From an uncultured bacterium (GTDB lineage Bacteria; Omnitrophota; Omnitrophia; Omnitrophales; Abzuiibacteriaceae): DNA of 64,000 nt. Location: positions 128,001 to 192,000 of the forward strand of contig CAYLXA010000005.1 of assembly GCA_964387845.1 (NCBI GenBank), given 5' to 3'. Below the pieces are notes generated by a model, which was not told the origin of the DNA, made no database searches, and saw nothing but the letters and a program-made list of their open reading frames with translations. Positions within the stretch are counted from its first letter, which is position 1. The number at the start of each line of letters is the position of its first letter. The position numbers and the translations under genes were made by a program. Below, piece by piece: positions 486 through 13,458 of the stretch.

Positions 486-789
486 GAGTAATTTGCCCTC
501 CCTTTTTTGGTAGCCCTTCCGCCTTTTGGCTTCAGGACGATGCTTCTAACTGCGTGAAGCATCGGGCAAATCACTTAATGTGGTGTCTTTATGCGATGAT
601 CGCAACCCTGTCCCAGCGCCACTTTGAAACAAAAACTTGTTTCTAATCAAAGCGCTGGACTGGACTCATTTCCTATAGACCGAACGGTTCCATTAATGAA
701 AATGAGTCCTGGTACTGCTTGATGCGAGAGTGAAGGATATCATATGTCCGGTCCGTATCAAAATGATTTTTTTCAGTTAAATTAATCCC

Positions 790-905
790 GAAAGGGTATA
801 TTTTATTAATTCGAGTTAAATATTATACCTTATAAGGTATAATATTTTTAAATTATACCAAAAAAGGTATAATATTTTACTAAAGTAGTTGATATTATAC
901 CCTTA
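790..905. promoter_or_regulatory. Three palindromic operator-like sites (AAATATTATACCT-n-AGGTATAATATTT and two variants) overlapping a sigma70-like promoter (TTGATA ... TGgTATACT) upstream of the hipB-like gene
   Basis: direct reading of inverted repeats at ~816-850, 851-878, 889-915. Confidence 0.5.
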
Positions 906-1145
906 ATGGTATACTATTCTGCCATGGATTACATTGGAGAAGAAATTCAAAATTTGCGTAAAAGAGCAGGGCTCACTCAACGAGAATTCGCGAAGCGAGT
1001 GGGTGTGGGGCTTAGATTTATTCGTGATCTTGAACAAGGAAAATCTACCGTACGGCTTGATAAGGTAAATCAGGTGCTTGAATTTTTAGGGCATCATTTG
1101 GAGATTGTTGCCAACCGTGAACGAAAAAATATTCAGAAAAGCTAG
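906..1145 (+). CDS. HTH XRE-family regulator, HipB-like antitoxin/repressor
   Basis: 79 aa with helix-turn-helix LTQREFAKRVGVGLRFIRDLEQG; first gene of three-gene hip-like operon. Confidence 0.7.
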   Translation: MVYYSAMDYIGEEIQNLRKRAGLTQREFAKRVGVGLRFIRDLEQGKSTVRLDKVNQVLEFLGHHLEIVANRERKNIQKS

Positions 1146-1461
1146 AGTTAACTACAAAGATGAACTTGCCGGTTATTTACAAGAAACCGAGAATGGTTTT
1201 CAATTTCTGTATGATGAAAATTATTTGCGTTCCGGCGGACAGCCAATTTCTGTGTCACTTCCTTTAACGAATGAGCCTTACGAATCAAAAGAGCTTTTTA
1301 GTTTCTTCCGCGGACTTTTGCCGGAAGGTTGGTACCTCGATATCGTGAGTGCGGCTAAGAAAATCGATACCAATGATTCTTTCGGCCTGCTTCTGGCTAC
1401 CACAGGCGACACGATCGGCGCAGTGACCGTATATCCAATCCGGGAAAGCGATGAGTCCTAA
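1105..1461 (+). CDS. HipS-like protein (stand-alone HipA N-terminal subdomain)
   Basis: 118 aa with HipA N-terminal/coupling-domain features (LPEGW, GxDxxGA); overlaps hipB 3' end and the downstream kinase gene start; alternative GTG start at 1114. Confidence 0.6.
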   Translation: MLPTVNEKIFRKARVNYKDELAGYLQETENGFQFLYDENYLRSGGQPISVSLPLTNEPYESKELFSFFRGLLPEGWYLDIVSAAKKIDTNDSFGLLLATTGDTIGAVTVYPIRESDES

Positions 1462-2311
1462 TCTGTTTGAAGAAATGTTTGGCACGAGCGAAGCTCCTAC
1501 AATCCCACTTTCGTTGAAGGATGTTCCTCTTCAAGCGCAAGTGATGGCGGGGTATATGTCCATTTCAGGGGTGCAGCCAAAATTGGTGCTGAAATTGGAT
1601 AAGCGTAAAAATGAGCTGACGGTGGCTCAGACGGATGGTGAATATATTTTAAAACCGCAAATCCCGCATTTCCCCCAGACGCCCGAAAATGAAAACTGCT
1701 GTATGGATATCGCTCAGGCGTTTGAGATTGAGGTGCCGCCCCATTGCCTTCTTCCACTGAAAGACGGAAGCCTGGCTTATGCGGTGAAGCGTTTCGATCG
1801 TGTGAGCGGCGAAAAAATCAATCAAGAAAGCTTTTATCAAATTCTTGAAAAAAGAGACAAATATATGGGCTCTCTGGAACAAATCGGTAACAGCCTGAAA
1901 CAAATTTCCGTAGTGCCGGGCCTGGATGTTCAGCTTTTCTTTGAATTAGTCGTTTTCAATTTTCTGATCGGCAATGGTGACGCGCATTTTAAAAATTACT
2001 CCATTTCTTATTTAAAGGATGGCATCCGGCTTTCTCCGGCCTATGATCTGGTTTGTTCCAAGCTGGTGATTCCGGGCGATTCGGATTCCGCACTCACGAT
2101 CAATGGCAAGAAGAATAATCTTAGGCGGGGCGATTTTGATGTGTTGGCTGCTTATTTAAAAATTCCGGAAAAGGTTCGTTACGATAAGTTTGCAGGTCAG
2201 CTTGGAAAAATGGAGCAATTGATTCGAGCCAGCCAACTCTCGGCAGATTTTAAAAAGACGTTTATTCAAATAGTTTCTTCACGTTTTGATCGGCTTAAAT
2301 TGGTGAATTAA
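1451..2311 (+). CDS. HipT-like Ser/Thr kinase toxin (HipA C-terminal kinase domain)
   Basis: 286 aa; Gly-rich loop MSISGVQPK (SIS motif) and catalytic GNGDAHFKNYS motif typical of HipA_C. Confidence 0.75.
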   Translation: MSPNLFEEMFGTSEAPTIPLSLKDVPLQAQVMAGYMSISGVQPKLVLKLDKRKNELTVAQTDGEYILKPQIPHFPQTPENENCCMDIAQAFEIEVPPHCLLPLKDGSLAYAVKRFDRVSGEKINQESFYQILEKRDKYMGSLEQIGNSLKQISVVPGLDVQLFFELVVFNFLIGNGDAHFKNYSISYLKDGIRLSPAYDLVCSKLVIPGDSDSALTINGKKNNLRRGDFDVLAAYLKIPEKVRYDKFAGQLGKMEQLIRASQLSADFKKTFIQIVSSRFDRLKLVN

Positions 2312-2339: not shown

Positions 2340-2470
2340 GGTACCAAAACATTACAAAGTAGTTAATCTAATTTCCTTATATTCACAGTTAAAATATGTA
2401 TATTTATATACATATATATGTATTGAATAGTACATTTATATGTATATAATAATACATATTATATTTGACA
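2340..2470. promoter_or_regulatory. AT-rich region with several ATGTATAT..ATATACAT-type palindromes (candidate operators/promoter) upstream of an unknown two-gene module
   Basis: palindromes atgtatatttatatacat, acatatatatgt, tacatttatatgta read directly. Confidence 0.35.
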
Positions 2471-2480
2471 TTAACACTTT

Positions 2481-2909
2481 TTGAGGGTAGATTTTCTCGT
2501 ACCGGAGGAAGCTGAATATACTAGATTAGTCAAATTTATGACCGCGGCCGGCTATAAACAAGTGACAGGCTATGGTTGGCAGAAAAAAGGAGAGGCAATC
2601 ATTTTTGATCTTTATGTCGGTAATTCGGTTTATTCAACGGAATTATTGTCATCGCCGCTTGAAAAAGGCGGCCATCAGAAATTGAAGGAATGGAATAAAA
2701 TTTATTTAGGTGCTTTAAATCCGGTAGATCTGATTATTTCAAAAATGTTTCGCGGCAGCGAAGTGGATGTCCAGGACAGTTTAGCGTTACTCAAGCATGA
2801 GAAAATTAGTATTGAGGAATTAAAGAAACGATACATCAAAACAGCCAAATATGATGTAAGCGAAGACAGGGTATTGAAAAATTTAGATACATTACTCAGG
2901 AGGCTTTAA
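2481..2909 (+). CDS. hypothetical protein (TTG start); possibly nucleotidyltransferase/AbiE-like, unassigned
   Basis: 142 aa ORF, 3-nt gap to next gene (operon). Confidence 0.4.
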   Translation: MRVDFLVPEEAEYTRLVKFMTAAGYKQVTGYGWQKKGEAIIFDLYVGNSVYSTELLSSPLEKGGHQKLKEWNKIYLGALNPVDLIISKMFRGSEVDVQDSLALLKHEKISIEELKKRYIKTAKYDVSEDRVLKNLDTLLRRL

Positions 2910-2911
2910 TC

Positions 2912-3583
2912 ATGGATAAAAGTGATTTGTTGGACCAATTGGCTCAGCATGGCTATTCATTGATGAAGCCAAAATCAGCCGAGCCGGCCGAAAAACTGCT
3001 GGAGGCATTGCTGAAGCAGGATGATGCGCGTCTTTTGGAGGGCTTTCCGGTGGTGTTGGCCAACGCGTTTGACCAAAAAGACGGCTTGACGTGGGAAAAT
3101 CCTAAATGGAATGCTGAGGAATGGCAGGGAAAAAACAGAAGAAAATTGGTGGCCATGCTGTCTTTTAGTTATTATTTGTTTCGTTTATTTGGATTGGCGG
3201 AGTCTGAAAAGAAAGTTTTAGATTTGGTCAAGAAATTAAAAGGGGATAAAACGCTTCTTCATTTAACCGAATCTTTTGCGGAGTCCAAAGAAGTAGACTT
3301 GGACGGTGTCTCGCTATCAACGGAAAGATTAAAAAGCGCTTTCCGCCAATATGTATTAACGTCGGATCAAGGCGACGAAGTCGAAAAAAAGAAACGCGCG
3401 TTGGAATTAGAGCTGCTGCTTTCCGAACTGTTCAGCACGCGGCAAAAAGAACTGCTTGAGAAGCGGCTTGGTGGGGAGGAATTCACCAAAACAGAGCGTG
3501 AATACTATTACCGCGTCGTCAAAAAACGCTTGAAAGCGCTCGCGAGTGACGAACTTCACCAGATGGCCCGTTCGTTGGTTTAG
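2912..3583 (+). CDS. hypothetical protein (helical, coiled-coil-rich C-terminus)
   Basis: 223 aa ORF translationally coupled to preceding gene. Confidence 0.45.
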   Translation: MDKSDLLDQLAQHGYSLMKPKSAEPAEKLLEALLKQDDARLLEGFPVVLANAFDQKDGLTWENPKWNAEEWQGKNRRKLVAMLSFSYYLFRLFGLAESEKKVLDLVKKLKGDKTLLHLTESFAESKEVDLDGVSLSTERLKSAFRQYVLTSDQGDEVEKKKRALELELLLSELFSTRQKELLEKRLGGEEFTKTEREYYYRVVKKRLKALASDELHQMARSLV

Positions 3584-3595
3584 GGCGGGGGGTGT

Positions 3596-3628
3596 GGCTT
3601 GAAGCTTGAAGCTTGTAGCCTGCAGCCC
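3596..3628. repeat. tandem heptamer array (GCTTGAA GCTTGAA GCTTGTA GCCTGCA), family A intergenic element
   Basis: 7-nt periodicity read directly. Confidence 0.6.
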
Positions 3629-3647
3629 ACAATCCTATCCGCCGAGC

Positions 3648-3667
3648 CTTACCCCTTACCCCTAAGT
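3648..3667. repeat. heptamer half-element (TTACCCC)x2, inverted partner of 9827-9862
   Basis: CCTTACCCCTTACCCCTAAG; its reverse complement TAGGGGTAAGG recurs at 9826. Confidence 0.5.
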
Positions 3668-4014
3668 TTCAATCTGGACACAAAGCTTTTTGAGGCATAA
3701 ATCCTACTTAAATTGTGCCTGTACCTGTCCACCAAAATGATGCCTGGCACCTTTCTGTTAAGGATTCATATGCAACTCCTTTTTCCTGTAACATCAGGAT
3801 ATCAGGTGTTGCACTAGTAACTTGAACTCAAGCAGGTACCGAAGTAGAAATCCACTTCCTATCCGCTATACGTTGTTCGCGAACCAATAAAATAGTTGTT
3901 GAAATATAATATAAAGATTGTAAAATAATTACCTCACGCAAACAGTAAACCCCTCTCACGCCTTCACGCGCAAAATCAAACTAATTTCGTAATGCGTTCA
4001 CAAGAAAGGCGGAT

Positions 4015-4809
4015 TTGCCAATGAAAAAAGAAAAACTCATTTCTCAGAGGGATGGTTTACCAATTCGTTCAAGCGGTCCTTGGATCCGCAAAAAACATCA
4101 CTATTTAATCAGATATGCTGACATATTTACCCGAGGGATGAAGAACAAATGGGAATTGACGTACCTTGATCTTTTTGCCGGGCCCGGATGCTGCTTAATT
4201 GAGAAAGAGATGATCGAATTAGCCGGATCTCCGTTACTTGCATTAGGTTTTGATTTTAGGAAATACATTTTTATTGAACAGGATCATGATGACCTTGAAG
4301 CATTGAAACAGCGGTGCTCAAAATCACCAAAACTAAGCCAGATTCAATTCATAGAAGGGGATTGTAATAAGAATATTGATCAAATTCGATTGACGGGATT
4401 AACGCTGGCTTTTATCGATCCAACTGGTATTGACGTTCATTTTGAAACGATTAAACGACTCACCTCTTTAGGGCCGGTGGACCTGCTAATAAACATACCA
4501 TTTCACATTGATATCAAGCGCAACTTCACGAAGTATATAAAAACCCAACATAAAAAATTGGATCTCTTTCTTGGCGGTAAGGTACCGTGGGATAAATTGC
4601 ATCAAGAAAGGGATGTTTTAGAGTTATACAAAAAGCGAATAAAGGATTTGGGGTATCAAACCGTAGAATACAGCGACATAGTTGTCAGTAATACAAACAA
4701 AGTTCCTATGTACTTTCTTTTCTTTGCGTCCAAGCATTCGCGTGGTGTAGAATTCTGGAAGAAAATTACCAAGAAAGACGAAACCGGACAACTGGAGTTA
4801 GAACTCTAA
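4015..4809 (+). CDS. three-Cys-motif partner protein TcmP-like (class I SAM-MTase-like motifs)
   Basis: 264 aa; N-terminus matches TcmP family pattern; DLFAGPG (motif I-like) and FIDPTG (DPPY-like motif IV); immediately upstream of DUF5131 gene. Confidence 0.55.
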
Positions 4810-4811
4810 GA

Positions 4812-5570
4812 ATGAGCGATAAATCAAATATCGAATGGACCGACGCGACATGGAATCCGGTAACGGGATGCAATAAAATCAGCCCCGGATGTAAAAACTG
4901 CTACGCCGAAACTTTCGCTGAGCGCTGGCGGGGAATTCCGGGCCATCCCTACGAACAGGGTTTTGACCTCAGATTATGGCCTGAGCGTGTCGGCTTGCCA
5001 TTATCGTGGAAAGAGCCGCGGATGATTTTTGTCAATTCCATGTCTGATCTTTTTCATAAAGATGTTCCGGATGACTTTATAGGGAAAGTATTTGAAACGA
5101 TGCTCAAAGCTAATCAGCATACTTTCCAGGTTCTGACCAAGCGGCCTGAGCGCATGGTTGAATGGACCAAGAAAACATTCGGCAATCAAAAATTACCGCG
5201 TCATATCTGGCTTGGTGTTTCGGTTGAAAACCAGGATTACGTATGGCGAATCATGTATCTTCAGCAAACACCGGCTCAAATCCGTTTTCTTTCGGTTGAG
5301 CCTCTTTTGGGGCCTGTTGTTTTAAAATCTTCAAATTTAAAAGGCATTCATTGGGTGATCGTGGGTGGCGAGAGCGGACACAGAGCCCGTCCTATGAATC
5401 CCGACTGGGCGCGTGATATCCGCAATCAATGCGAAAAATATGGCGTCGCTTTTTTCTTCAAACAATGGGGCGCTTTTAACGCGAAAGGCGAACGCGTTGG
5501 TAAAAAAGCCGCCGGCCGGGTTCTCGACCGCAGAACCTGGAACGAAATGCCAATTACAATCCCCGCCTAG
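4812..5570 (+). CDS. DUF5131 / phage Gp37-Gp68 family three-Cys-motif protein
   Basis: 252 aa; [27 protein letters not shown] signature (C-x6-C-x2-C). Confidence 0.65.
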
Positions 5571-5593
5571 AATCCATCTCTCGTGGTTTAAAC

Positions 5594-5626
5594 GAGAAGC
5601 TTGTAGCCTGTAGCTTGCAGCTTATC
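5594..5626. repeat. tandem heptamer array (GAAGCTT GTAGCCT GTAGCTT GCAGCTT), family A
   Basis: read directly. Confidence 0.55.
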
Positions 5627-5744
5627 ATCATGATATAATTCCTATCGCGACGGCGCCCACATTGACCGCCGCGTGATGGCACTTGCGCCAGCGTTACCGC
5701 AGGTGCCTGCGAACGAAGTGACGCAGAATAAAGCGCAAGTGTCT

Positions 5745-6092
5745 ATGTCCGACATCAAGAAACTCACCGAAAAGATCAAGCAATTCCGCGACGAACGGGA
5801 TTGGAAGCAATTCCACAACCACAAAGATATGGCACTTTCACTTGTTCTTGAAGCCGCTGAACTTTTAGAACATTTCCAGTGGAAAACATTGGATGAAGTT
5901 GAAAAGCACGTGAAAACCTCAAAAGAGGATGTTTCAGATGAGCTTGGCGATGTCGCGATCTATCTTTTCGAGCTCGCCGATAACTTAGGGATAGACCTAT
6001 CAGAAGCGGTAGAAAGCAAGCTTCTTAAGAATGCCAGAAAATATCCTATACAAAAATCTAAAGGCACCATAACCAAGTACAATCAATTGTAA
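5745..6092 (+). CDS. MazG-like nucleotide pyrophosphohydrolase
   Basis: EHFQWK..E.ELGDV..YL..LA..LGIDL..A...KL.KN..KYP MazG signature; start taken at internal ATG 5745 (ORF track 5673). Confidence 0.65.
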   Translation: MSDIKKLTEKIKQFRDERDWKQFHNHKDMALSLVLEAAELLEHFQWKTLDEVEKHVKTSKEDVSDELGDVAIYLFELADNLGIDLSEAVESKLLKNARKYPIQKSKGTITKYNQL

Positions 6093-6099
6093 AGATTAA

Positions 6100-6876
6100 A
6101 TGCCCGGCAATGAATCTGCAGTAATAAAGTATTTGTTCAGAAATAAGAATCGTCTCGAGTTACCTCATTTAGGTTTAATAAAATCAATTGGGTTTCCAAA
6201 TGGACTCACAAATAACTACAAAGAAATAAAAAATGAAAATGAAATTTTAGAATGTTGCTCAGACAATGCTCGAAAAAAAGCAGATGTCTATATTAATGGG
6301 CAAGGCGTATCAATAAAACAATCAGGAGGAAGTTTTTCTTTTAATCGTTTGCAGCGTGCCGAGTTAATAGAAGTTTTTGCTAGTTTAATTTTTGATGCCC
6401 CTCATAATGTTTTAACTCAATTAGATAAAGAAGTTGAAAAATTTCATTTTGGAAAATTATCAGGACGTGGTAGGCCGTGGAAAGATTTTTTCTCAAATAA
6501 AGAATTTTATGCTTTAACAAATGCTCTTATGATGTTGCAATCTCCAAATTATGGACTTTCTCTTCATCCCGCTAAATTTATTCTGGAGGCTTCAAAAAAT
6601 TTAACAACCAATCCGAGTTTAAAAGTTTATACTTTTGATGAATATTTTGAACGTTATAACGAGTTTTTCAGGATTGCTATAAGACGTGTTTGGTTGGGGC
6701 AGAATAGTAAATCTGAGCATGGCCGTGCAAAAAGTCTAATAGCAAAACCTGAGAATGCAACCTGGGTCTTTAATACAATTTCCGGAACGCCAAGAAGTGG
6801 TTGGAAAGTTGATTTTCCAAAGTCGGAAAGAAGAACTGTGTATTATTTGATGATAGAAAAAGTAAATTCAAAATGA
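6100..6876 (+). CDS. hypothetical protein; candidate Type II restriction endonuclease of the adjacent vsr-dcm module
   Basis: 258 aa, low GC, 4-bp overlap with vsr; possible D...(V)SIK PD-(D/E)xK-like element; no family recognised. Confidence 0.35.
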   Translation: MPGNESAVIKYLFRNKNRLELPHLGLIKSIGFPNGLTNNYKEIKNENEILECCSDNARKKADVYINGQGVSIKQSGGSFSFNRLQRAELIEVFASLIFDAPHNVLTQLDKEVEKFHFGKLSGRGRPWKDFFSNKEFYALTNALMMLQSPNYGLSLHPAKFILEASKNLTTNPSLKVYTFDEYFERYNEFFRIAIRRVWLGQNSKSEHGRAKSLIAKPENATWVFNTISGTPRSGWKVDFPKSERRTVYYLMIEKVNSK

Positions 6877-7301
6877 CATTTGTATTTCAAACGACAAGTC
6901 AACGCTCCGAGTTAATGAAAAAGATTAAAGGAGTTAACACTAAGCCAGAAATTGCTTTTGCAAAGAAACTTGAATTATACAAAGTCAAGTTTAGAAAACA
7001 TTTTAAAAAACTCCCTGGAGTACCGGATTTTGCTATTTTGAGAGGTAGAGTAGCGGTGTTTATCGATGGGGAGTTTTGGCATGGATACAATTGGGTTAAT
7101 AAAAAGAAAAGGATAAGATCCAACCGACAATACTGGATTAAAAAAATAGAAAGAAATATACTAAGAGATTCGATAAATATGAGAGAATTAAAGAAAATAG
7201 GTTGGTATCCTTTAAGATTTTGGCAGCATGAAGTTGTTGCTGAGGGTGATAAATGTATAAAGAAAATCGAAAAAATAATGCAGCGACGAAGTTCAAAATA
7301 G
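6873..7301 (+). CDS. vsr: very-short-patch-repair endonuclease Vsr
   Basis: TSQRSELM...TKPE...FIDGEFWHG... conserved Vsr core. Confidence 0.8.
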   Translation: MTFVFQTTSQRSELMKKIKGVNTKPEIAFAKKLELYKVKFRKHFKKLPGVPDFAILRGRVAVFIDGEFWHGYNWVNKKKRIRSNRQYWIKKIERNILRDSINMRELKKIGWYPLRFWQHEVVAEGDKCIKKIEKIMQRRSSK

Positions 7302-8383
7302 CATCTTTTTTTGCTGGCTGTGGCGGCCTAGATTTAGGTTTCCAGCAAGCGGGCTTTGATGTTGTTTGGGCAAATGAATACGATAAAACAATTTGGGCTA
7401 CCTACGAACACAACCATCCTCATACGTTTTTATGCAAGAAATCTATTATCGATGTCAAATCAGATGAAATTCCAACTGTTGTTGGCATGATAGGTGGCCC
7501 GCCATGCCAAAGCTGGAGTTTAGCCGGAGCCATGAGGGGAGTAAAAGACCCGCGAGGTAAACTTTTTTATGAATACATAAGAATCTTGGCCGATAAACAA
7601 CCATCATTTTTCTTAGCCGAAAATGTTGCGGGCATTGTTTCTAGCACTCATGTGAATTCATTTGAAAATATCCTTAAAAAATTCGAAGAAATTGGTTACG
7701 TTACTTCATATAAATTGCTTGATGCAAAATCCTACGGCGTTCCTCAGGATCGGAAAAGAGTTATCATTGTAGGGTATTCTAAAGGTTTACATAAGAAATT
7801 TGAATTCCCGCAAGAAACTCATGGTGTAAATTCAGCGAATGGCGACTTATTCAAGCCACATTTAAAACCCTATGAAACTTTACGCTCTGCAATTGACGAT
7901 TTGCCTAATCCGGTGCCTGCTAGTTTGAAAAATAAGTCGAACAGCAGAATTCGTATTCCAAATCACGAATATATGACAGGAGGTTTTTCTACCATTTACA
8001 TGTCACGAAATAGGAGAAGAAATTGGAATGAGCCTTCATTTACAATTCAGGCGGGAGGCCGGCATGCACCGCTACATCCATCAAGCACTGAAATGATTAA
8101 AAAAGAGCCAGATTGGTGGGTATTTAAAAAGAAAGACAAAAAGGCTTATCGGCGAATGTCGGTAAGAGAATGCGCACGAGTTCAAACCTTCCCTGATAAA
8201 TTCATATTCAAATATGATTCAATTGCGGATGGTTATAAAATGGTTGGTAATGCAGTTCCCGTCGAGTTGGCGCGTGTTATAGCATTAAGAATAAAGTCAG
8301 ATTTGATACCAGAGAAAAATAATCTTAAAAGATCATCCCTTCGCAAAACACCCTATTCCGAATTGGTGTTAGCTTCCTCATAA
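7253..8383 (+). CDS. dcm: DNA (cytosine-5)-methyltransferase
   Basis: motif I FAGCGG, motif IV GGPPCQSWS, ENV motif VI, C-terminal target-recognition region. Confidence 0.85.
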   Translation: MYKENRKNNAATKFKIASFFAGCGGLDLGFQQAGFDVVWANEYDKTIWATYEHNHPHTFLCKKSIIDVKSDEIPTVVGMIGGPPCQSWSLAGAMRGVKDPRGKLFYEYIRILADKQPSFFLAENVAGIVSSTHVNSFENILKKFEEIGYVTSYKLLDAKSYGVPQDRKRVIIVGYSKGLHKKFEFPQETHGVNSANGDLFKPHLKPYETLRSAIDDLPNPVPASLKNKSNSRIRIPNHEYMTGGFSTIYMSRNRRRNWNEPSFTIQAGGRHAPLHPSSTEMIKKEPDWWVFKKKDKKAYRRMSVRECARVQTFPDKFIFKYDSIADGYKMVGNAVPVELARVIALRIKSDLIPEKNNLKRSSLRKTPYSELVLASS

Positions 8384-8424
8384 ACCGTAAACTGGACACC
8401 GTCCGGCAGAAAAAAGGTTGTTGA

Positions 8425-9540
8425 ATGAGGCAAATATTCATAGTAGTGGCAGGAGGCAATGCTGCTGCTGATCGTCACTTCGAAGATACAATCCAACGTA
8501 AACGTACCTTAGATGAAGTGCGGCAATTTCTATCTTCCCAAGAAATTCATGAGATCGAATCAGTTTATCATACAGCACCTTTTATTGTCTGGGGCGCTAT
8601 TCCCGGCCCAATGAATATTCCGCGTTGGCAAAGTATGCGTGTTGGCGATATTGTTTTGATTTACACAAGAGGACATATCCGATTAATTGGCGAAGTGGCA
8701 TCAAAAGTAAGAAGTAATTCGTTGGCTCGCTATTTTTGGAAAGAAACACCCGAAAACAAAACCTGGGAATTGATTTATTTTATTGTAAATGAACAAAGGG
8801 TAAATATACCGATGCCTTTATTAAATGAAGCGCTTGGTTATAGCGCAAGTTACTCTCCGAGGGGATTTAGTTCTGTCGATTCTGATAAGGTCAAATCATT
8901 CGTTAATCGTTATGGCGATATATTCGAAGGGCTTAAAACACTCAGTAAAGGCGAGAAACTAATCGAAATTTCGCCAGCGAAAAAGTTAGAAGTCCAACAG
9001 GTTGAAGAAAAGATTGAACAATCATCGAATGAGCATGACGAAATGCAATGGCGGTTAATTAGATTGGGCAAATTGTCAAGGTACGATGTTTGGGTTCCCA
9101 GAAATGATCAAGGGCACAGCTTTGGAGGTCAACGATTTCGGGATTTTGTGTTGCCGGAATTCCACGAGAGTTTAGATGTTCCACCCAGTATTAAAAATAT
9201 CGATGTCGTGTGGAAATTTGGTCCTTATTCGATCACATCTGCATTTGAAGTCGAACATTCAACATCCGTTTATTCAGGAATTTTAAGGCTTTCGGATCTG
9301 AGAACCGAAACACCGAATTCACAATACCCACTTTTTATTGTTGCTGACGAAGCAAGAAAGCGGAAGGTATTTTCGGAACTTGCGCGCCCCACTTTCTCAA
9401 ATCCCTTTTTGCGACTTCACGAAGTAATACGATTTTTGAGTTACGAAAGAATCAGGGACATTGATGAAAAGTATAAGCAAGAACCTGAATTTGAACCGCA
9501 AATACTCTTTACTGCCGGAGAAACTTTCGAGAAAAATTAA
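8425..9540 (+). CDS. hypothetical protein with EVE/PUA-like N-terminal domain and putative PD-(D/E)xK-like C-terminal nuclease domain (candidate modification-dependent restriction enzyme)
   Basis: VGDIVLIYTRGHIRLIGEVASKV resembles EVE core (VGDLVFFYHS..IVGIAEV); C-terminal DVWVP...IDVVWKFGP...AFEVEHS pattern. Confidence 0.4.
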   Translation: MRQIFIVVAGGNAAADRHFEDTIQRKRTLDEVRQFLSSQEIHEIESVYHTAPFIVWGAIPGPMNIPRWQSMRVGDIVLIYTRGHIRLIGEVASKVRSNSLARYFWKETPENKTWELIYFIVNEQRVNIPMPLLNEALGYSASYSPRGFSSVDSDKVKSFVNRYGDIFEGLKTLSKGEKLIEISPAKKLEVQQVEEKIEQSSNEHDEMQWRLIRLGKLSRYDVWVPRNDQGHSFGGQRFRDFVLPEFHESLDVPPSIKNIDVVWKFGPYSITSAFEVEHSTSVYSGILRLSDLRTETPNSQYPLFIVADEARKRKVFSELARPTFSNPFLRLHEVIRFLSYERIRDIDEKYKQEPEFEPQILFTAGETFEKN

Positions 9541-9729
9541 CAAATCGAGGATCTTATCATGATTAAATCAAGAAAATTGAAGGCTGATCTAACCCAGTTA
9601 TTAAATTATCTTTGGCATGACGAGAGAAAACATTATTTGGAGCGGCGAAACAAGAATCATATTTATTTAACAATTCGCAGATTGGCAAAAGAAATTAGTT
9701 ATAAGCCGTAAATCGAACGCGTCTCGACG

Positions 9730-9840
9730 ATGTGCGGAAGATATTCATTAACCCTCGATAAAAAGAAACTCCTCGCGGAATTCGCGCCCGAGCCCCGCGC
9801 CCACAAATTTCTTGATTTCCATTATAGGGGTAAGGATTAA
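9730..9840 (+). pseudogene. 5' fragment of a SRAP (YedK/HMCES, DUF159) gene: MCGRYSLTLDKKKLLAEFAPEPRAHKFLDFH then out-of-family tail and stop
   Basis: MCGR N-terminus with catalytic Cys2 is the SRAP hallmark; only ~31 family-like codons. Confidence 0.55.
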
Positions 9841-9862
9841 GGGGTAAGTCGTAAGTTTTAAG
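9827..9862. repeat. heptamer half-element GGGGTAA GGATTAA GGGGTAA GTCGTAA GTTTTAA, inverted partner of 3648-3667
   Basis: 7-nt periodicity; reverse complement of 3648-3667 motif. Confidence 0.5.
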
Positions 9863-9936
9863 TAGAATTATGCTGATAGTCATACCCCATCCCTCCTAAA
9901 CATTCCCCTTGAACATGTTGTAGTTATGTACTACAA

Positions 9937-10533
9937 TTGTTGTACATCATGACAACAAGTTTAATCTTTCAGCTCCAGCAAACCAAGTCGCCGCTCAGGA
10001 AGAAGCTTTTATCGTACTTCTTCACGAATCCCGGGGCGAAGCTCTATCTCAGAGATATCGCGCTCAAACTCCATGTCGATCCCGCGAATCTTTCGCGCGA
10101 GCTCAAGCGGCTCACCGATGAAAGTGTTTTTGTTGCCCAGAAGCAGGGTAATCTCAAATATTTCTCTTTGAATCCAAAGCACGCCTTATATGAAGAATTT
10201 AAGTCCATGATTTTTAAGACCATCGGCGCTCAAGGCGCGATTGAAAACCTGTTAAGTAAAATCCCGGGAATTAAACGCGCTTTTATTTATGGTTCGTTTG
10301 CCAAAAATACGGAGCGTGCGGATTCCGATATCGACCTTTGTATGATCATCCAAAAAAAAGAATTCAAAGAAAATCCTTTCCTTGAGGGAATTCATAAACT
10401 CGAAGGTGAACTTGGCAGGGAAATCAATTATACTTTCTTTACCGACGAAGAATGGCAGTCCAAGCAGCGATCTAAAGATAGCTTTGTCACCGGAATTCTT
10501 AAGAATAAAAAAATCGATCTCATGCATATATGA
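9937..10533 (+). CDS. minimal nucleotidyltransferase (MNT) with N-terminal winged-HTH, antitoxin-like partner of HEPN
   Basis: AFIYGSFAKNTERADSDIDLCMI NTase motif; wHTH N-terminus; ATGA overlap with next gene. Confidence 0.75.
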   Translation: MLYIMTTSLIFQLQQTKSPLRKKLLSYFFTNPGAKLYLRDIALKLHVDPANLSRELKRLTDESVFVAQKQGNLKYFSLNPKHALYEEFKSMIFKTIGAQGAIENLLSKIPGIKRAFIYGSFAKNTERADSDIDLCMIIQKKEFKENPFLEGIHKLEGELGREINYTFFTDEEWQSKQRSKDSFVTGILKNKKIDLMHI

Positions 10534-10994
10534 AAAAAATTGATCTTCAAGATTTAATTCAAGAAGGGCAGCTTCAAGAAGAGCCAGGTATCGGCTGGGA
10601 CCAGGTGGAGCGTTTAATTAAACGGGCATTTGAAGATTTGAAATCAGCCGACCGGAACATGTCCTTTGATGAGCCGGGCGCGATGGATTTTATCTATAAG
10701 GCGATGTTTCATGCTGGGAACGCTTTGATTCGTTCATATGGGTTTAGGCCGGGCGCTACCAGACAGCATCAAGGTGTGATTACGGCAGTTGGGCGGATCT
10801 TGGGCGTTGAATCAAAGGCGCTGATTCTGAAATTTGATAAACTCAGGAAACGCCGCAATGAGTTTGAATATCAGGGCATTTTTGCGATGGGAAGAGAAGA
10901 GTTGAAAGATTCCATCGAACAAGCCAAACAATTGGTTGGCGTGATACGAAAAGCACTCGAAGATTCTCATCCACAAAAGCAGTTTAAATGGTAA
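10530..10994 (+). CDS. HEPN-domain protein (putative toxin of MNT-HEPN pair)
   Basis: 154 aa helical protein with KRRNEFEY R-x4-6-H-like motif; genetic coupling to MNT. Confidence 0.55.
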   Translation: MKKIDLQDLIQEGQLQEEPGIGWDQVERLIKRAFEDLKSADRNMSFDEPGAMDFIYKAMFHAGNALIRSYGFRPGATRQHQGVITAVGRILGVESKALILKFDKLRKRRNEFEYQGIFAMGREELKDSIEQAKQLVGVIRKALEDSHPQKQFKW

Positions 10995-12297: not shown

Positions 12298-13458
12298 ATG
12301 AGCGAGTGGATCGGACGAGATAGAAAAGCAAGGCGTGCATACGGTTTTGATGAAATTGCGTTGTCCCCCGGAAATCTGACCATTAATCCCGACGAAGTTG
12401 ACATCAGTTTTTATATCGATAAAAAGAAATTCGAAATTCCGTTTATTGCCTCCGCGATGGACGGTGTGGTGGATCCTAAGTTCGCGGTCGCGATGGGCAA
12501 AATGGGCGGCCTCGCGGTGCTTAATCTCGAAGGCATCTACACCCGCTACGACAATTATCAAGAAATCTTAGACGATATTGCCAAAGCCACGCCTGAAAAA
12601 GCCACTGAGCTGGTTCAGAAACTCTACGTGGAACCGGTCAAAGAAAAACTAATCTCAAAACGCATTCAGGAAATCAAGAAAGCCAAAGTACCTGCCGCTG
12701 TGAGTTCCATTCCGCAAAAAGCGGAGAAGTACGGCAAAATCGCCGAAGAAGCCGGCTGTGATGTGTTTGTGGTTCAATCGACCGTCACCACGGTTCGCCA
12801 CATCGCGAAAGCGTACAAAACCCTCGAATTCGAAAAGTTCTGCAAAGCGATGAAGATTCCCGTCATTCTCGGAAATTCCGTGACGTATCAAGTGGCGGTT
12901 GAACTCATGACGGCCGGCGCGGACGGACTCTTAGTCGGCATCGGTCCGGGATCGGCTTGCACGACCCGCGGCGTGTTGGGCCTCGGTGTTCCGCAGGTGA
13001 CCGCGATTTGTGATTCCGCAGCCGCGCGCGAATTTTATTACAAAAAGTCAGGACGCTACGTTCCGATCATCGCAGACGGCGGTATGTCCACGGGCGGCGA
13101 TATTTGCAAAGCATTCGCTTGCGGATCTGATGCCGTGATGGTGGGTTCCGCTTTTGCCCGCGCCAAGGAAGCGCCGGGGAAGGGATTCCATTGGGGCATG
13201 GCCACACCGCACGCCAATTTGCCGCGCGGCACACGCATTCGCGTCGGCACGACGGGAACTTTGCAGGAAATTATGTTCGGCCCCGCGAAATTGGATGACG
13301 GCACGCAAAATTTAGTCGGCGCACTTAAAACCTGCATGGGCAACATCGGCGCCCGCACGGTCAAGGAAATGCAAATGGCCGAAATCGTGATTGCGCCTGC
13401 GATTAAAACGGAAGGAAAGCTCTTTCAAGCGGCTCAAAAAGTTGGAATGATGAAATAA
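12298..13458 (+). CDS. IMP dehydrogenase/GMP reductase-family protein lacking CBS subdomain (GuaB-like)
   Basis: catalytic loop [20 protein letters not shown]; 386 aa, no CBS pair. Confidence 0.8.

Follow-up and report, generated by a model that had tools for sequence, protein, structure and literature searches.

A probable autonomous HipBST-type toxin-antitoxin cassette with its own operator array in an uncultured Omnitrophota-type bacterium

The stretch of DNA analysed here, 64 kb of contig CAYLXA010000005.1 (hereafter the window), carries a hipB-hipS-hipT cassette at positions 783-2311. Three overlapping + strand open reading frames (ORFs) follow one another in the order helix-turn-helix (HTH) protein, HipS, HipT, and they are preceded by an array of palindromes and a predicted promoter. 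The features of the cassette are the following.

783-800: predicted operator O4, degenerate and distal, TAATCC-cgaaag-GGTATA, with 2 mismatches in the left half-site
824-841: predicted operator O3, perfect, TATACC-ttataa-GGTATA, the core of a 30-nt perfect palindrome at 818-847
854-871: predicted operator O2, TATACC-aaaaaa-GGTATA
896-913: predicted operator O1, promoter-proximal, TATACC-cttaat-GGTATA, between the -35 and -10 hexamers and overlapping the -10
889-917, + strand: predicted sigma-70-type promoter from a consensus scan, -35 TTGATA at 889-894, 17-nt spacer, -10 TACTAT at 912-917
924-1145, + strand: hipB, a 73-aa Cro/C1-type HTH protein, predicted operator-binding autorepressor
1117-1461, + strand: hipS, 114 aa, a homologue of HipA N-subdomain 1, predicted antitoxin
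1451-2311, + strand: hipT, a 286-aa HipA_C core Ser/Thr kinase, predicted toxin

A preliminary description of the same DNA had placed the ORFs at 906..1145 (79 aa, HTH), 1105..1461 (118 aa) and 1451..2311 (286 aa), with overlapping stops and starts. The ORFs were recovered at these positions and the overlaps are indeed present: the hipS TAA at 1459-1461 lies beyond the hipT ATG at 1451, an overlap of 11 nt, and hipB and hipS share 29-41 nt. The gene lengths were upheld only in part. The HTH ORF itself is confirmed, but its start at 906 is not, the conserved start being ATG 924 (73 aa), and HipS is called from GTG 1117 (114 aa).

Hip families are defined by their genetic organisation (Gerdes et al. 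2021). Because the gene organisation, this published criterion, and the homology of all three proteins fit, the locus was assigned to HipBST, and it is very probable that window 783-2311 holds a type II toxin-antitoxin cassette of the HipBST type that is intact, autonomous and equipped with its own operator array. The architecture proposed earlier was confirmed in each of its parts, namely the gene order, a HipS that is homologous to N-subdomain 1 and a kinase without that subdomain; the best solved relatives are HipB, HipS and HipT of Legionella pneumophila (Lp). Searches with profile hidden Markov models, a check suggested at the time, matched HTH_3 (1.9e-10), Couple_hipA PF13657 (1.9e-25) and HipA_C PF07804 (1.2e-45). 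A scan of one genome per species yielded 80 related loci, mostly from Omnitrophota metagenome-assembled genomes (MAGs), with others from Elusimicrobia, Bacteroidota, Verrucomicrobiota and Cloacimonadota. The genes hipB, hipS and hipT are co-oriented in the window, and the same order is found in loci L001-L034. The anatomy and the homology of the cassette are thus established directly.

HipA_C is the sole Pfam domain detected in HipT, and no Couple_hipA was found in it. Among proteins of solved structure in the Protein Data Bank (PDB), HipT matches HipT(Lp) best (8ezr_B, 6.3e-43 over residues 20-283), followed by HipT of E. coli O127 over residues 35-202 only (7ab3_C, 2.2e-16), and it matches the fused HipA proteins of Shewanella and E. 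coli weakly (E about 1e-4 to 1e-5). By this sequence ranking it is closer to HipT kinases than to HipA. In Foldseek, its predicted fold retrieves HipT(Lp) first (template modelling score 0.77), then HipT(O127) (~0.70) and HipA (~0.57); coming from a low-confidence model, this ranking is consistent with the sequence evidence, adds little weight beyond it and is no independent proof. The sole NCBIfam match, to the YjjJ/HipH kinase, is sub-threshold (22 bits against a cut-off of 401), and this identity was therefore rejected.

Both kinase motifs quoted in the preliminary description are present. MSISGVQPK lies near the N-terminus and supplies S37-I-S39 of the Gly-rich loop at residues 36-45, and GNGDAHFKN supplies D177, H179 and N182. 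The residues needed in HipT(Lp)/HipT(O127) are, in Lp numbering, K61, K85, D197, H199, N202 and D219 (PMC9325769), and D197Q/D219Q constructs of HipT(Lp) are listed in PMC10653801. In the alignment these correspond to K44, K68, D177, H179, N182 and D199 of the HipT studied here, all invariant in 36 aligned homologues; K68, D177, N182 and D199 are kept in 79-80 of the 80 related loci. We take K44 and K68 to be ATP-binding, D177/H179/N182 to be catalytic and D199 to be the Mg-binding residue. Mutation of D133, R134, E144, R154, K157 or K201 in HipT(Lp) abolishes or weakens HipS binding (PMC9325769). The equivalent residues here are D116, R117, E126, K134, K137 and K181, five of the six being identical and the change from R154 to K134 being conservative. 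The dual autophosphorylation motif of O127 HipT is S57-I-S59 (PMC10627512), which the SIS loop here equals; SIS is present in 67/80 related loci, and the Legionella loop reads SVQ.

A protein search returned over 100 different clusters (90% identity) of ~286-aa HipT proteins that share 63-74% identity with this kinase, and their named members come nearly all from Omnitrophota (Omnitrophica) MAGs. Such tight conservation and high abundance across a phylum are unusual for a toxin of a toxin-antitoxin (TA) system. The abundance may reflect frequent horizontal spread or the presence of several copies per genome.

HipS is a small stand-alone protein with no extra domain that aligns with HipA residues 12-108. 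In addition to the Pfam match it is recognised by NCBIfam TIGR03071 couple_hipA (8.2e-27), and its solved relatives are HipS(Lp) (7vkb_B, 5e-17), H. influenzae HI_0666 (7czo_A, 2.4e-14) and HipS of O127 (7ab3_B, 3.3e-12). The start at GTG 1117 is the gene call on an independent contig and gives 114 aa; TTG 1105 would give 118 aa. A Glu-Gly-Trp wedge motif at residues 74-76 (118-aa numbering) was observed in 33/33 closest loci with a detected HipS. In the alignment it falls on Glu63/Trp65 of the HipS from E. coli O127; there, Trp65 is wedged in next to the Gly-rich loop, and HipS cannot act as antitoxin without it (PMC10627512). Because the SIS loop and the Glu-Gly-Trp motif match O127 and not Lp, the module is, judged by sequence, Legionella-like overall with E. 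coli-type regulatory residues. The overlap of hipS with hipB (window 1100-1145), 29 nt from GTG 1117 or 41 nt from TTG 1105, exceeds the usual 1-4-nt coupling overlap, as do the overlaps of 20 to >100 nt in the 14 closest orthologues, counted from the first possible start codon.

HipB was scored on the ORF starting at 906, which matches HTH_31 in addition to HTH_3 and reaches 80.2 bits against NCBIfam TIGR03070 couple_hipB, above the curated cut-off of 71.65. TIGR03070 is the HTH subfamily whose defining feature is that its genes are paired with HipA-type genes. Among solved proteins, HipB(Lp) is the closest to this HipB (8ezt_A, 5e-08). ATG 906, which would give 79 aa, was dropped as the HipB start: it falls within operator O1, and the HipB alignments to most close loci run from the first residue of the 924-start protein, where many of the ORFs also start. 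An O1-type proximal site precedes the hipB ATG by 9-16 nt in 22 of the 23 compared loci (the window included) and by 10-13 nt in 20 of the 23, and a Shine-Dalgarno motif upstream of hipB is absent in 23/23. Because the conserved ATG sits 10-13 nt past the operator without a Shine-Dalgarno motif, hipB most likely starts at ATG 924, giving a protein of 73 aa. The -10 hexamer ends 6-9 nt before the hipB ATG (window 889-926; loci L001-L024). We infer that the hipB mRNA is leaderless or nearly so, with a predicted transcript start at or adjoining ATG 924. In L025 and L027, which are more distant, the hipB leader is longer and contains GGAG.

Upstream of hipB, TATACC-N6-GGTATA occurs without mismatch at 824, 854 and 896 and nowhere else in the 64 kb. 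By chance 0.02 such sites would be expected, and 0/100 shuffled sequences reach three. A fourth, degenerate site, TAATCCCGAAAGGGTATA at 783-800, lies 113 bp upstream of O1, and orthologous loci carry a site at -113 to -115; at the O4 position of locus L011 it is likewise degenerate (AATCCC...GGTATA). Relative to O1, the orthologous loci keep the O3 position at -72 and O2 at -41/-42, and the start-to-start spacing of 41, 30 and 42 bp recurs upstream of hipB in >20 of them. Since these spacings amount to ~4, 3 and 4 helical turns, we infer that the operators would lie on one DNA face. Loci of Omnitrophota, Elusimicrobia, Flavobacterium, Dyadobacter, Cloacimonadota and Gastranaerophilales carry the motif at matching distances from the hipB ATG, and the DUF1016, DUF6036 and 223-aa genes that flank the cassette in the window are absent from all 80 related loci. 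Because the motif persists in loci without shared flanking genes, the operators belong to the cassette and not to its neighbourhood, and from these comparisons the cassette is judged to be context-independent. A TTGnnn hexamer stands directly before the proximal operator in 20/23 compared loci. A consensus scan found no terminator after hipT.

Legionella HipB binds three 18-nt operators composed of 6-nt inverted repeats, as determined by electrophoretic mobility shift assay (EMSA), the promoter-proximal one lying 24 nt before the start codon (PMC10653801). The phylogenetic footprint, which was observed directly for this cassette, and the Legionella geometry support the prediction that HipB binds the palindromes and autoregulates the operon. 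The proposal of the preliminary description that the palindromes look like cooperative HipB operators is supported, although its count of three becomes four when the degenerate site at 783 is included.

In several other split-kinase clades (L033, L038, L051, L058, L060, L066, L068, L071 and L078), perfect 6-N6-6 palindromes with different half-sites were observed upstream of hipS. These include TATTCA-N6-TGAATA in Verrucomicrobiota, Spartobacteria and Tenebribacter MAGs, ATCACA-ttataa-TGTGAT in Flavobacteriia and TATATG-N6-CATATA in a Marinilabiliaceae MAG. Since other clades carry the same layout with different half-sites, these sequences suggest that HipBST modules in general use the 18-bp geometry and that recognition is specific to each clade.

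On one side of the cassette is a DUF1016/YhcG gene adjoining groEL, and on the other a run of defence- and TA-type genes. This run (window 2481-10994) ends before an IMPDH-family gene at 12298, and the cassette stands at the edge of the cluster. Its annotated members are listed below.

2481-2909: DUF6036 nucleotidyltransferase-like protein
2912-3583: its 223-aa partner, without a family match
4015-4809 and 4812-5570: TcmP-like protein and DUF5131 protein; PADLOC candidates PDC-M41A/B and M30B (9e-106)
5673-6092: MazG-like protein
6873-7301: Vsr
7253-8383: C5 cytosine methylase
9937-10994: MNT-HEPN

Past the C5 methylase, an unannotated 371-aa ORF at 8425-9540 may encode the cognate restriction enzyme. 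At window 2390-2463, directly upstream of the DUF6036 gene, there is a second palindromic array, also AT-rich. Its unit ATATGTATAT-N2-ATATACATAT occurs at 2394-2415 and again at 2438-2459, and the 33-nt arms of the array show 88% complementarity. The array overlaps promoter-like hexamers, TTGAAT...TATAAT at 2423-2450 and TTGACA at 2465. The array looks like the operator region of the module at 2481-3583, in which no HTH protein is evident.

Given this setting, the cassette could be HipBST by descent and yet serve mainly in abortive-infection phage defence instead of persistence or addiction, with infection freeing HipT from HipS and HipB. Its position at the edge of a ~10-kb defence and TA gene cluster fits such a role, and a defence role is plausible because a HipA-family kinase system of different organisation, DS-6/HipAD, has been validated as anti-phage (PMC13092281). 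Matches to the PADLOC candidate PDC-M03 were also obtained for HipS (1.5e-09) and HipT (9e-05). However, co-location in a defence island is merely suggestive, none of the HipBST literature compared reports phage defence by a HipBST system, and the PADLOC matches are weak and partial; identity with a recognised PADLOC defence system was rejected, the only matches being those to candidate PDC-M03A/B. We therefore regard a primary role in defence as possible, though doubtful. It concerns the biological role of the cassette and is compatible with the molecular mechanism proposed below.

In the HipBST mechanism that we propose, free HipT would phosphorylate an essential cellular protein, by analogy an aminoacyl-tRNA synthetase, and thereby arrest growth. 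HipS (~114 aa), the detached N-subdomain 1, would bind next to the kinase active site, where its Glu-Gly-Trp would hold the Gly-rich (P-) loop inactive and block ATP binding. HipS is the predicted antitoxin because it would lock the P-loop against ATP in this way. HipB would dimerise, bind HipT and repress the operon through the four 18-bp TATACC-N6-GGTATA operators, set three to four helical turns apart. O1 covers the promoter spacer and overlaps the -10, so that HipB occupancy would repress synthesis of the predicted leaderless hipB mRNA. The overlapping reading frames would couple translation of hipB, hipS and hipT.

By analogy with the characterised systems, HipT toxicity would thus depend on kinase activity and would be neutralised by HipS, not by HipB. 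The conserved catalytic residues lend this indirect support, as do the HipS-contact residues, most of them kept, and the HipS Trp wedge. The opposite assignment, in which HipB would be the main antitoxin, on the model of canonical HipBA, and HipS no more than an accessory lid, draws on the antitoxin role of HipB in HipBA systems (PMC8262856) and on the direct binding of HipT by Legionella HipB (PMC10653801). In both characterised HipBST systems, however, HipS neutralises and HipB alone does not (PMC8262856, PMC9325769), and the locus described here retains the wedge motif of HipS and most of the contact residues of HipT. We consider the HipB assignment very unlikely.

It is slightly more improbable still that the palindromes are not HipB operators but repeated promoter-like AT-rich sequence or the sites of an unrelated regulator. 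HipB binding to them is a prediction, the operator region is AT-rich, and the right half-site and flank of each palindrome are -10-like (GGTATAAT), each palindrome containing TATAAT or TATACT. Promoter-like repetition is nevertheless hard to reconcile with the conservation of the half-site G/C positions (ACC/GGT) and of the 6-nt spacer length while the spacer sequence varies, with the constant distances of the sites to the hipB ATG in loci whose flanks are unrelated, with the restriction of the motif to this region of the 64 kb, and with a palindrome geometry equal to that of the EMSA-validated Legionella operators.

The possibility, raised in the preliminary description, that hipS and hipT are a single hipA broken by a frameshift (through sequencing error or as a pseudogene) would account for the joint colinearity of HipS and HipT with HipA and for their 11-nt overlap in different frames, but it is effectively refuted and the split is genuine: the two are separate ORFs in 77/77 related loci having both, with junctions from a 167-nt overlap to a 16-nt gap; the best 120 protein homologues of HipT have 275-314 aa and HipA_C only; the nearest solved relatives are naturally split HipS/HipT proteins; and the exact HipT is found on contigs assembled independently from SRR15237813 and SRR15237816 (Logan), with 0 mismatches over 3788 and 1264 bases, junction included.

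Several points weigh against the interpretation of the locus as an intact HipBST cassette that functions as proposed. This locus and its Omnitrophota homologues are known from sequence only. HipT, at 286 aa, falls 5 aa under the published range of 291-346 aa for HipT kinases (PMC8262856). HipT was modelled by AlphaFold with low confidence (mean predicted local distance difference test score 59.5, 36 homologues), probably because the alignment spans just 63-74% identity. Legionella HipS has Ile where the HipS described here has Trp, and the details of neutralisation may therefore differ between branches. The -10/-35 assignment is a consensus match only; the region holds 7 promoter-like sites against 5.1 in shuffles. 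As to the target, E. coli O127 HipT inactivates TrpS (PMC8262856), but the toxicity of HipT(Lp) is rescued by neither TrpS nor GltX (PMC10653801); because HipT(Lp) is the closer relative, the TrpS target is not transferable to this HipT.

Viewed more broadly, the cassette might represent a large, well-conserved, Omnitrophota-centred and Legionella-like branch of HipBST, having a 286-aa kinase with a target other than TrpS/GltX and serving as a mobile abortive-infection cassette, under four-operator, helically phased, leaderless control in which the half-sites co-diverged with HipB and the 6-N6-6 layout stayed fixed across phyla. We hold this composite picture tentatively and think it rather unlikely to be correct as a whole. 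The cassette itself extends HipBST beyond Proteobacteria into an uncultured, small-genome phylum. The four operators, with their conserved offsets, fixed 6-N6-6 layout and clade-specific half-sites, form a comparative set for HipB recognition that could help derive a HipB recognition code and show whether occupancy is cooperative, a point left open by the Legionella study (PMC10653801). Since Legionella-like sequences are combined here with E. coli-type regulatory residues, the branch could also help separate the features that set neutralisation from those that set target choice. The new points themselves are modest: the four-site array with its conserved footprint, the 6-N6-6 layout shared with divergent half-sites, the size of the Omnitrophota branch and a probable leaderless hipB. 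Current understanding is not overturned, and the result amounts to the correct annotation of a known system.

Compared with other known organisations, the cassette differs from HipJS/HipIN, two-gene, kinase-first modules in which the partner is HipS or a HipS-HIRAN fusion and an HTH gene is not described (PMC8262856). Here an HTH gene is followed by hipS and then the kinase, and HipS has no extra domain; HipJS/HipIN was set aside by this published description. Canonical HipBA was likewise rejected because the kinase is not fused: it has 286 aa without Couple_hipA, and N-subdomain 1 is on a separate ORF. E. coli K-12 HipBA shares a homologous kinase fold and an HTH partner with the cassette, but it has a single 440-aa kinase with fused N-subdomain 1 and HipB as antitoxin, and sequence similarity is weak (E about 1e-4). 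The K-12 hipBA promoter reportedly has four 18-bp palindromic operators, TATCC-N8-GGATA, bound by HipB. These resemble the operators described here in number and overall length, whereas half-site sequence and internal spacing differ.

HipBST of E. coli O127:H6 (PDB 7ab3, 7ab4, 7ab5) has the same tripartite organisation, and the S-I-S loop and the HipS Glu-x-Trp wedge are common to both. It is, however, much more distant in sequence than the Legionella system, its HipT has 335 aa compared with 286 aa here, and operator motifs of the Legionella type are absent upstream of hipBST(Ec) (PMC10653801).

Among solved proteins, those of Legionella pneumophila HipBST (Lpg2368-Lpg2369-Lpg2370; PDB 8ezr, 8ezt, 7vkb) come closest to all three products. 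The two systems share their gene order and the ATP-binding and catalytic residues, and in each of them 18-bp 6-N6-6 operators adjoin the hipB start. The half-site is TATACC/GGTATA here and TTACTG/CAGTAA in Legionella, whose O1 is TTACTG-ctataa-CAGTAA (oligonucleotide table, PMC10653801), and the array comprises four sites with 12-24-bp gaps compared with three sites with 53-bp gaps. Further differences are the SIS loop in place of SVQ, a HipS Trp in place of Ile65, a HipT that is ~26 aa shorter than HipT(Lp) with ~17 residues missing from the N-terminus, and a hipB that, unlike that of Legionella, appears to be leaderless. The hosts also differ, Legionella being a pathogen that bears a type IV secretion system and the host here an uncultured Omnitrophota-type bacterium. 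Thus, the cassette is an ordinary addition to a family of which members from E. coli O127 and Legionella have been characterised before.

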